From Sulfolobaceae archaeon (GTDB lineage: Archaea > Thermoproteota > Thermoprotei_A > Sulfolobales > Sulfolobaceae), in assembly GCA_038893355.1 (NCBI GenBank), contig JAWARQ010000003.1, positions 64,001-128,000 of the forward strand: a stretch of 64,000 nt of DNA, read 5' to 3'. Below, piece by piece: positions 6,350 through 36,033 of this stretch. Position 1 is the stretch's first letter; every line of letters begins with the position of its first letter. Made by a program: the position numbers and the translations under genes. Below the pieces are notes generated by a model. It had not been told where the DNA came from. It worked only from the letters and a program-made list of their open reading frames with translations, and ran no database searches.

Positions 6350-7099
6350 CTATAAAGATTCTTCTTTACCATCAAGATACTTAATATAAAACCTCCCATT
6401 CTTATAATCAATACTCATAACCCTCTTATCATAAAAATTAAATAATTCTGGAAAGTTAATTTTTAGTGTATCTGAAAGAATTTTCGATATTTGTTCTATA
6501 ATATGCAGACCTATTCTCTCTCTATTTTTACGGGAATTTGAAATAAACTCGAATAAATTACAAACCTCTCCTAAATTTTGGATTCTACAAATCTCGATAA
6601 CATCTTTATCTCTTAATGGAATAATATTCAAATTTTCAACACTTATAAACCTTATTAATGCTCTAACTGTCTTATAAAAATTATTTAGTTCACTTATTTC
6701 ATCCCCCCTTAATAATGCATTTATCCCCAAAACATAATAAGATATAATGTTATTTTTTAATATAATTTTAGTTCTTTCAGTAATTTGGAATTCAAATTTA
6801 GGTAATTCACCACATACTAGTTTAGAATCATAAAGGATGTAATAACAAATAACTTCACCTTGTTGACAAAGCAGCTTTAACTCAAAATCTGCTAAGACTA
6901 CAGGAGAGCACCCGGAGCTCGCCAATTCTAATAGGTATTTATTTTTCATATTATGATTTTTTAACACTACGAAAACGTTTATATCAGAAATCCCTTCAAC
7001 ATAGTCCTCTTTAGAAGTATAAGATCCAAAATAGCCTATACACTGTACAATCGAATCACAACCTAATGATATATTCTCACACATGGAGTAATACACCAT
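6350..7099 (-). CDS. Pol-beta-superfamily nucleotidyltransferase-like protein (start may be 7084)
   Basis: FGS...SDIN.F motif followed by a helical C-terminal domain. Confidence 0.6.
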   Translation of the reverse strand: MVYYSMCENISLGCDSIVQCIGYFGSYTSKEDYVEGISDINVFVVLKNHNMKNKYLLELASSGCSPVVLADFELKLLCQQGEVICYYILYDSKLVCGELPKFEFQITERTKIILKNNIISYYVLGINALLRGDEISELNNFYKTVRALIRFISVENLNIIPLRDKDVIEICRIQNLGEVCNLFEFISNSRKNRERIGLHIIEQISKILSDTLKINFPELFNFYDKRVMSIDYKNGRFYIKYLDGKEESL

Positions 7100-7293
7100 C
7101 TTAAAGCTTACTTTCCATTTACCGTTTTCCTTACACTTTTGATTTGCATCTCTAAGCCCTTCGGTTCTTCTGTTATAACCTAAACTACTATTAGAGATCG
7201 TCTTCTATAAGGAAATTTATATAACAAACATAAAAAGATTTTTGTTAACGTAGAAAGTTAGTAAGAACTGTAAGTAACTAGATTTTTAGTCTT

Positions 7294-7503
7294 AGGGGTT
7301 TGGGCTTCATCGAATTTTCATGAATTTATATCTAACTCTCAGCCCTTGGACTTCACCGAAGTCACGGGGCATTGCCCCTTTCATCCCTCTCCATCCCCTT
7401 AGCGGGATGACCCCAAACCCACATCCGCAGAATATCGCGGATGTGGAGAACCCGCATATCTTGTGTAACGTCTTGCTATTTTTCGGGAAAGTGTGTCCAC
7501 ATC
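7294..7503 (-). mobile_element. IS200/IS605-type tnpB 3'-end remnant (omega/reRNA-like structured region)
   Basis: GC-rich island with at least five hairpins. Translation across two frameshifts gives CGF-HIRDILRMWV-GVIPLRGWRGM...PRDFGEVQGLR, which resembles Sulfolobales TnpB C-termini as I recall them. Confidence 0.7.
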
Positions 7504-7518
7504 TGATAACAAGCTTTT

Positions 7519-7534
7519 TAATAAATACTTTTCT
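7519..7534 (-). promoter_or_regulatory. BRE-TATA promoter candidate upstream of the tnpB remnant
   Basis: GAAAAG-TATTTATTA on the minus strand just upstream of the structured region. Confidence 0.5.
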
Positions 7535-7764
7535 CATATAAGATAATATAGACTTTACAATTTATCGGAAACTACTGACAACGACGAGTCTTCAAAATCC
7601 AAATTTGCTAAAAACTAAAACTTAGTATAAGTGACGTTTTAAACTTTCTTATAAAGAAATTTAAGTCTATCGTAAAGCATGAGGCTCCATCTATAACTTA
7701 ATTTTCGTAAATTCGTCTATCGTCTTATTTATAAGTTAAAAGTTAAATATATTCCTCATTAATT

Positions 7765-35931: not shown

Positions 35932-36033
35932 TGCGGGGGGTGGGATTTGAACCCACGCAGGCCTACGCCAGCGGGGCTCTTACCCTTAAAGGTCCTAAGC
36001 CCGCCCCCTTTGACCTAGCTCGGGCACCCCCGC
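35932..36033 (-). tRNA. tRNA-Leu(UAG) with 17-nt intron at 37/38 (35977-35993)
   Basis: GCGGGGGTGCCCGAGCTAGGTCAAAGGGGGCGGGCT-TAG-G^ACCTTTAAGGGTAAGAG^CCCCGC...GGTTCAAATCCCACCCCCCGCA; BHB central helix CUUA/UAAG. Confidence 0.96.

Follow-up and report, generated by a model that had tools for sequence, protein, structure and literature searches.

What is a GC-rich run of hairpins, derived from tnpB and preceded by a promoter, doing in an AT-rich archaeal genome with no readable gene of its own? The locus lies in a 64,000-nt stretch of a Sulfolobaceae archaeon (assembly GCA_038893355.1, contig JAWARQ010000003.1, positions 64,001 to 128,000), which we call the window and number from its first nucleotide. 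A sequence-only reading, made without database searches, had proposed a stand-alone guide RNA of the omegaRNA type that had lost its tnpB gene, perhaps domesticated as a noncoding RNA (ncRNA). It had correctly recognized a tnpB-less, minus-strand scaffold of that type with a promoter upstream. Our analysis corrects the stand-alone, domesticated part of that reading: positions 7295-7585 are, with high confidence, a mini non-autonomous element derived from IS607. Both IS607-type termini, a left end (LE) and a right end (RE), are present in native order and orientation, and the 291 bp between the borders contain no transposase or TnpB gene. The genome (1.40 Mb in 17 contigs, 84% complete) has about 32% GC; the island at 7295-7463 reaches 0.49, compared with about 0.3 around it. 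The features considered below are these.

7295..7585, minus strand: whole mini element, 291 bp, delimited by the family-profile match and by copies with unrelated flanks
7531..7585, minus strand: LE, common to full-length elements carrying tnpA and tnpB
7545..7558, minus strand: GTAAAG resembling a transcription factor B recognition element (BRE), plus TATA box; promoter of the parent tnpA, kept in mini and full-length copies
7472..7513, minus strand: hairpin H1, 9 bp, on the 5′ side, from the tnpB region encoding the first zinc-finger CxxC
7295..7463, minus strand: core omegaRNA-type scaffold, the last ~169 nt of tnpB plus the RE
7418..7447, minus strand: hairpin H2, CCACATCCGC/GCGGATGTGG, flanked by two frame-breaking single-T indels
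7366..7378, minus strand: hairpin H4, GGGGC...GCCCC, with 3 of 4 pairs changed on both sides
7312..7338, minus strand: hairpin H7 near the RE, in which one pair covaries
7275..7294, minus strand: candidate guide, flanking DNA directly 3′ of the RE boundary
7307..7537, minus strand: 76-aa open reading frame (ORF), judged spurious; no Pfam match, not conserved

Extent, ends and parentage of the element

A profile of 20 mini copies, with the window copy as one row, matches the window's own genome (G000, in which the window lies on contig C3) at C3:71585-71295 over profile positions 1-282 with 259 bits. Homology to the 20 copies found elsewhere begins and ends at the 7295-7585 borders, beyond which the flanks are unrelated, and contigs from public hot-spring sequencing runs break away at 7294/7295 and at 7583, which marks repeat borders. 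Each boundary carries an uncertainty of about 3 nt, given a possible CC core dinucleotide at both junctions.

The RE was located through related sequences in the same genome. Positions 7295-7463 are 82-86% identical to four other places (C7:58-226, C1:335207-335375, C4:186406-186575 and a C1 remnant), the first three of which are ends of ORFs whose C-termini align with the broken peptide of the window; the ORFs on C1 match OrfB_IS605 and Cas12f1-like_TNB in Pfam. All five own-genome copies have their sequence in common as far as ...AAGCCCAAACCCC, past which they are unrelated, and these copies and those in other genomes diverge right after ...AAGCCC(A/G)AACCCC. This common end point of all copies places the transposon RE at 7295. 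The similarity to tnpB ends predicted from the letters was thus borne out, as was the predicted guide start: the flank, beginning TAAGACTAAAAATCTAG, takes over exactly where a guide would begin. The C1 remnant, 95 nt of RE-only scaffold matched at C1:549-642 (as a locus, C1:546-640), lies some 280 nt from, and divergent to, the LE of the tnpA copy at the start of that contig.

The LE at 7531-7585 aligns to the sequence directly 5′ of tnpA in three full-length elements from relatives (L071, L072 and L074) and at C1:269-215 in the window's own genome. When window positions 7543-7597 (minus strand) were compared with that genome, two places matched, one of which, C1:267-227, lies directly upstream of an IS607-type tnpA; the N-terminus of the adjoining TnpA matches HTH_17 and MerR in Pfam. 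The BRE and TATA box that the sequence-only reading had seen upstream of the scaffold do exist, at ~7545-7558 on the minus strand, and are the transposon's own tnpA promoter. In the full-length copies a GTAAAG/TTTATATT-type BRE/TATA stands ~27-36 nt before the tnpA ATG as read from the alignment, a spacing that would fit a leaderless tnpA mRNA. A second LE copy at C9:24858-24902 (L006:1512-1556) is 85% identical to that of the window and has the same BRE/TATA; no tnpA follows it, but instead a GC-rich stretch of ~250 nt with the right-end-like terminus ...TATGAAAGTCCGACCCC. This copy may represent a sister subfamily, as a mini element that has diverged further.

The full-length elements identify the parent. 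They measure 1,907-1,934 bp and encode a 205-aa TnpA and a TnpB of ~433 aa. TnpA matches NF033518, 'IS607 family transposase', with 222 bits (cut-off 110) and also carries Resolvase, HTH_17 and MerR domains, while TnpB matches NF040570 with 110 bits. The mini-copy profile maps on these elements in three blocks: the LE (profile positions 1-56), a zinc-finger part of tnpB (65-135) and the last ~170 nt (116-282), the RE matches on L071, L072 and L074 beginning at position 114, 116 or 117 and running to 282. The mini form thereby lacks ~1.6 kb, comprising all of tnpA and ~344 tnpB codons, and a further ~57 nt with the second CxxC and the DRxxN motif; the RuvC-III DRxxN motif reported missing from the window's TnpB-like peptide falls within this smaller deletion. 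The −1 and +1 frameshifts reported for the same peptide reflect two single-T indels that bracket the CCACATCCGC hairpin: compared with the other copies, one T is missing and one T is extra. The family arose by two deletions. One took out everything between a point shortly after the tnpA promoter and about tnpB codon 344; another, of ~57 nt, took out the second zinc-finger CxxC and the RuvC-III motif. What is left is the LE, comprising the terminus recognized by the recombinase and the tnpA BRE/TATA, fused to a structured segment made up of the tnpB 3′ end and the RE, which serves as the omegaRNA scaffold in TnpB systems.

This architecture is not confined to the window. Among 47 genomes of the family, one of them G000, our search gave matches in 34, covering 12 of 14 genera and mostly to tnpB ends; an open frame of 425-435 aa ends at 13 of the 24 related right ends that we looked at. 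Matches from LE to RE occur in seven other genomes (G036, G020, G027, G016, G007, G024 and G044), belonging to six genera and yielding 20 mini copies with unrelated flanks. Nineteen of these have both ends (L061 lacks the LE) and span 267-287 bp; with the window copy the family ranges from 267 to 291 bp. Since the same gene-less architecture recurs in 20 copies from seven genomes, the deletions are older than the insertion in the window and the element is of a mobile mini type. With both IS607 ends in place, the earlier proposal that tnpB was lost and RNA kept at this very locus does not hold.

The copies also behave as IS607 elements do at their borders. No flank repeat is seen in 16 of the 20 copies; a repeat of 1 nt is seen in two, of 2 nt in one and of 3 nt in one. 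Terminal inverted repeats were not found, the termini sharing just 4-7 of 20 positions as inverted repeats. IS607 elements are described as having neither inverted repeats nor target duplications (10.1101/2023.11.20.567912). By eye, 16 of 21 copies have CC at LE positions 2-3 (15 of them as GCC) and 18 of 21 have it as the last two RE bases, which suggests that CC at both junctions is the core dinucleotide, analogous to the GG of the IS607 element studied there. A strict miniature inverted-repeat transposable element was rejected for want of both terminal inverted repeats and a target-site duplication.

Among relatives, matches come from Sulfolobus and Acidianus hosts and from viruses. Sulfolobus monocaudavirus SMV1 has a 114-nt RE scaffold remnant in an intergenic gap (L083:1474-1587); in SSV10 a 433-aa ORF annotated as hypothetical ends in the scaffold and is probably a full tnpB (L082:314-1627); Acidianus tailed spindle virus also matches.

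Structure and conservation of the scaffold

The helices listed by the sequence-only reading were all recovered at their positions (plus-strand coordinates). CCACATCCGC at 7419-7428 pairs with GCGGATGTGG at 7437-7446; CATCCC, present at 7382-7387 and 7392-7397, has its partner GGGATG at 7404-7409; GGGGC (7366-7370) faces GCCCC (7374-7378) and GACTTC (7349-7354) faces GAAGTC (7358-7363); and a long-range pair joins GGGTTTGGG (7296-7304) to CCCAAACCC (7412-7420). On the minus strand the fold reaches −79 kcal/mol (z = −3.43), and none of 200 shuffled sequences folds as well. With z = −3.53 the plus strand does about equally well, and the strand was therefore assigned by homology rather than by folding. 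The position of the scaffold is that of an omegaRNA: it lies on the tnpB sense strand, overlaps the tnpB 3′ end and the RE, and stops at the transposon boundary.

Conservation of pairing was scored in two sets of sequences. Across 48 copies, a model of 37 pairs has 91.7% of its cells paired, compared with 32-61% when the partners are slid, and 16 pairs are changed on both sides, compared with 7.6 ± 1.9 in shuffles (0 of 500 reach the observed value). Across the 21 gene-less copies, a 46-pair model is 90.2% paired (32-55% when slid) and has a covariation score of 0.223 versus 0.161 in shuffles (0 of 500). RNAalifold run on MAFFT alignments returned only partial structures because the variable hairpins were misaligned.

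Support from covariation is best for H1, H2, H4 and H7. In H1, 5 of 9 pairs are changed on both sides among the 21 mini copies; by eye, full-length tnpB has a hairpin of different stem sequence at the same place, the homology block there being defined by the profile mapping. Among the 48 copies, two-sided changes affect 5 of 10 pairs in H2, for which several subfamilies have a wholly different stem sequence (by eye), and 3 of 4 in H4; one pair of H7 is A-U, G-C or G-U in 20, 15 and 10 copies, respectively. Some of the stems named by the sequence-only reading are not shared by the family as a whole. For GACTTC/GAAGTC, 76% of cells are paired and two of the six pairs are unpaired in about half of the 48 copies; for CATCCC/GGGATG, the conserved part is the inner CCC/GGG only. 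The long-range pair is conserved in sequence and 91% paired, and it competes with other helices. No covariation was found across the 48 copies in GACTTC/GAAGTC, in the extended CATCCC/GGGATG or in the long-range pair. A subfamily abundant in G018, G024 and G035 (tnpB ends L031, L036, L037 and L038, from G018, G012, G024 and G035) has H2 replaced by a longer CCCACCT...AGGTGGG hairpin with an inner ACTCCC/GGGAGT, the rest of the scaffold being kept.

Protein coding does not account for this conservation. The longest ORFs of the 21 mini copies have starts scattered from element position 28 to 172 and use all three frames, and three of the 21 copies have none of at least 25 aa; since the stems are kept while ORFs are unconserved, the constraint is not a protein-coding one. 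That the 76-aa ORF at 7307-7537 is a small protein gene for a truncated C-terminal TnpB peptide is extremely improbable. Its frame is open and its ATG stands ~20 nt after the TATA box, but it has no Pfam match, it departs from the TnpB frame over ~13 codons, and its ATG is unique to the window copy, neither ATG nor frame being conserved in the other 20. We rejected this protein on the lack of a Pfam match and of conservation.

At gathering score, Rfam matches in the window are limited to two tRNAs, and in 7150-7650 no family matches even at E values up to 10. One of the tRNAs, at window 35932-36033 on the minus strand (45.4 bits), carries an insertion of 19 nt, probably an intron, in its anticodon region and is not reported by ARAGORN.

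Guide, proposed homing and alternative readings

What the element might do follows from established TnpB systems (PMC10055086, 10.1101/2023.11.20.567912), on which the mechanism proposed here is modelled. The LE promoter would start a minus-strand RNA near 7521, ~8 nt before H1. This RNA would consist of a scaffold of ~227 nt running into the flank, so that its 3′ part, from 7294 downward, would act as the guide; a run of five T residues on the minus strand at 7232-7236, ~60 nt past the boundary, may end the transcript. Full-length copies at other places in the genome would provide the TnpB that binds the RNA in trans, and TnpA, likewise supplied in trans, would move the element. After excision by TnpA, the rejoined empty site would pair with the guide next to the left-flank motif and be cut, and repair from the sister chromosome would restore the mini element. 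Taken whole, a mini IS607 element with RNA-guided homing is the best explanation we have and a reasonably probable one; for homing as the function of the mini element, taken separately, our preference is slight to modest.

The guide itself is consistent with homing. When 0-1 mismatches are allowed, its first 16 nt match nothing in the 1.40-Mb assembly but their own flank; five sites occur at two mismatches and many at three, as expected by chance in AT-rich DNA. A guide that matches only its own flank fits homing and not the regulation of a distant target.

The same result bears on the idea of a domesticated stand-alone guide or regulatory ncRNA serving TnpB, a dead TnpB or a host target, which we consider very improbable. 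Something can be said for it: an identical LE junction occurs in contigs from three public runs (X2, X3 and X4) belonging to three studies, no joint that skips the element was seen, and the element sits in a divergent promoter region, reading toward the ORF at 6350-7099. The genus of the window genome is represented by G000 alone among the 47 genomes. Against domestication stand the two intact transposon ends with the element's own tnpA promoter, the presence of the same element at unrelated sites in other genera, the lack of a second guide target at 0-1 mismatches in the assembly, and the cognate TnpB, which retains the D of its DRQLN RuvC-III-type motif and gives no hint of a dead partner. 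A domesticated guide resembling those of TnpB-like nuclease-dead repressors (TldR), or a host ncRNA, was rejected on the own-flank guide match and the presence of both ends.

That a TnpB partner is encoded elsewhere, as had been suggested, is supported by the cognate tnpB found in the own genome. Only one copy can be read through, at C1 335225-336524 (L003:1513-2812), and it is split into frames of 216 and 201 aa near C1:335880; the other two tnpB copies and the tnpA are interrupted at contig ends. Three element copies lie at contig ends, and the insertion sequence probably broke the assembly. Two more distant TnpB homologues, with 22-29% identity to the cognate protein, and a second IS607-type TnpA (43%) are encoded in the genome as well, at C1:64996-66048, C6:42354-42788 and C12:16107-16619, from which it follows that several tnpB lineages coexist.

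Several observations weigh against homing by this copy. An intact TnpB partner is not evident in the own assembly given the frame break and the contig ends. That assembly contains one complete mini copy only, the window element being the sole one in the profile search. The window copy has T at LE position 2 where 15 of the 21 copies have C, and this variant base, with the two single-base indels, could impair recombination or folding. By eye, the mini-copy alignment shows no clear conserved sequence ahead of the LE that could be a transposon-adjacent motif (TAM). No RNA run was among the public data sets listed as holding the sequence, and the one metatranscriptome listed had next to none of the sampled words. 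An empty site was not found, and no contig among four runs skips the element; the RE junction is crossed by only 26 nt of one X5 contig (31-nt criterion), and in the one cross-species comparison, of a G020 copy, the G022 flanks lie 18 nt apart and the alignment stops short of the borders. The structure model was made by hand and drawn partly from the window sequence, so that its perfect fit to the window means nothing; shared ancestry of the copies inflates the shuffle statistics; and the closing and long-range helices are ambiguous in the model.

A rival reading is an inert, DNA-level element, mobilized by TnpA now or in the past, in which the RNA has no role and the RE was kept for the recombinase or the copies are simply young. 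In its favour, the long-range pair and several of the stems show sequence conservation with no covariation, related copies can exceed shuffles with no structure at all, and the missing empty site, the indels and the variant core base point the same way. We nevertheless judge this reading rather unlikely. Some 230 nt of the tnpB side are kept, which by our own reasoning seems far more than a recombinase site needs (minimal IS607 ends have been assayed in 10.1101/2023.11.20.567912). Copies that differ by 20-30% remain paired through two-sided changes in H1, H2, H4 and H7, which points to a folded single strand and not to a protein site on duplex DNA. The 5′ hairpin, moreover, was retained despite the deletion of the sequence that had separated it from the core.

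The main effect of this copy might be that its LE promoter, reading across the RE, drives the neighbouring gene at 6350-7099, a possibility that is compatible with the other readings and improbable in its own right. The gene is on the same strand, with its start at 7099 located 195 nt downstream of the RE at 7295, and the first run of five T residues on the minus strand comes only ~60 nt past the boundary. That run at 7232-7236 is nonetheless a plausible archaeal terminator, and the gene has an AT-rich, TATA-like stretch of its own between the element and its start.

Two bolder extensions of the homing model are doubtful and offered as speculation. The mini elements might be 'guide-RNA parasites' of IS607, in which the scaffold, set right after the transposase promoter, yields a dedicated, strongly expressed guide that competes with the parent omegaRNA for TnpB and secures homing at the parent's expense; this would add a hyperparasitic layer across at least seven Sulfolobaceae genera and their viruses. 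Bolder still, the window copy might be fixed and serve the host as promoter or RNA for the adjacent nucleotidyltransferase-like gene, a suggestion that rests on the same site being present in several hot-spring data sets with no empty allele seen.

If the preferred reading of a mini IS607 element with RNA-guided homing is right, a TnpB guide RNA can persist and spread in archaea with no nuclease gene of its own, and the two cis requirements of an IS607 element, recombination ends and guide scaffold, are packed into less than 300 bp driven by the transposase promoter. Because the gene-less copies are free of protein-coding constraint, they offer a clean natural experiment on which parts of an archaeal omegaRNA of ~230 nt must pair (H1, H2, H4 and H7), which could help in trimming guides for thermostable TnpB. 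For annotation, GC-rich islands of this type in AT-rich Sulfolobaceae genomes are best labelled miniature IS607 derivatives, not novel ncRNA genes or tnpB pseudogenes.

Comparison with known systems

Structured RNAs from tnpB 3′ ends are known in archaea as sense overlapping transcripts (sotRNAs; PMC4615843), as the omegaRNA of SisTnpB1 from S. islandicus, whose TAM is TTTAA (10.1101/2023.03.06.531077), and as circular omegaRNAs in Sulfolobales (PMC12558985). The window scaffold resembles them in being a structured RNA at a tnpB 3′ end, with conserved RE hairpins followed by a non-conserved guide. They overlap an intact tnpB of IS200/IS605 elements, however, whereas the window element lacks the gene and has a transposase promoter fused to the 5′ side of the scaffold; in contrast to SisTnpB1, no TTTAA motif is evident.

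The parent architecture is that of the IS607 elements with tnpA(S) and tnpB studied by Zedaveinyte et al. (10.1101/2023.11.20.567912): inverted repeats and target duplications are lacking, a dinucleotide is repeated at the junctions (CC here, GG there), and homing would rely on a TAM plus a guide match at the donor joint. The window copy differs in being gene-less, in having a TAM and core dinucleotide that are guessed, and in having no group I intron. In the literature searched, which left most subscription journals outside, we found no description of protein-less IS607 derivatives that fuse the transposase promoter to an omegaRNA, and no paper linking the element SMN1, considered next, to guide RNAs.

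SMN1, a non-autonomous element of 320 bp from Sulfolobus islandicus, is said to require the transposase of ISC1733 (PMC3718332). Like the element described here, it is a Sulfolobaceae non-autonomous element of ~0.3 kb derived from, and putatively mobilized by, an insertion sequence of the orfB/tnpB type; the sizes differ (267-291 bp here), and the two were compared by description, not by sequence. Our family may be SMN1 itself or a relative of it.

The closest functional parallel is with the protein-less IS200/IS605 derivatives known as palindrome-associated transposable elements (PATEs), which encode omegaRNAs (Meers et al., PMC10055086). Identity with PATEs was rejected, as the parent transposase is an IS607 serine recombinase (NF033518) and not a Y1 HUH enzyme; the ends are not palindromic, the host is an archaeon, and the scaffold stands directly behind the LE transposase promoter. 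The likeness lies in the plan: both transposon ends, no protein gene, an RE omegaRNA scaffold whose guide comes from the flank, and reliance on TnpA and TnpB in trans, as would be the case here. In kind, then, the element at 7295-7585 is a known and expected one, PATE-like and SMN1-like.

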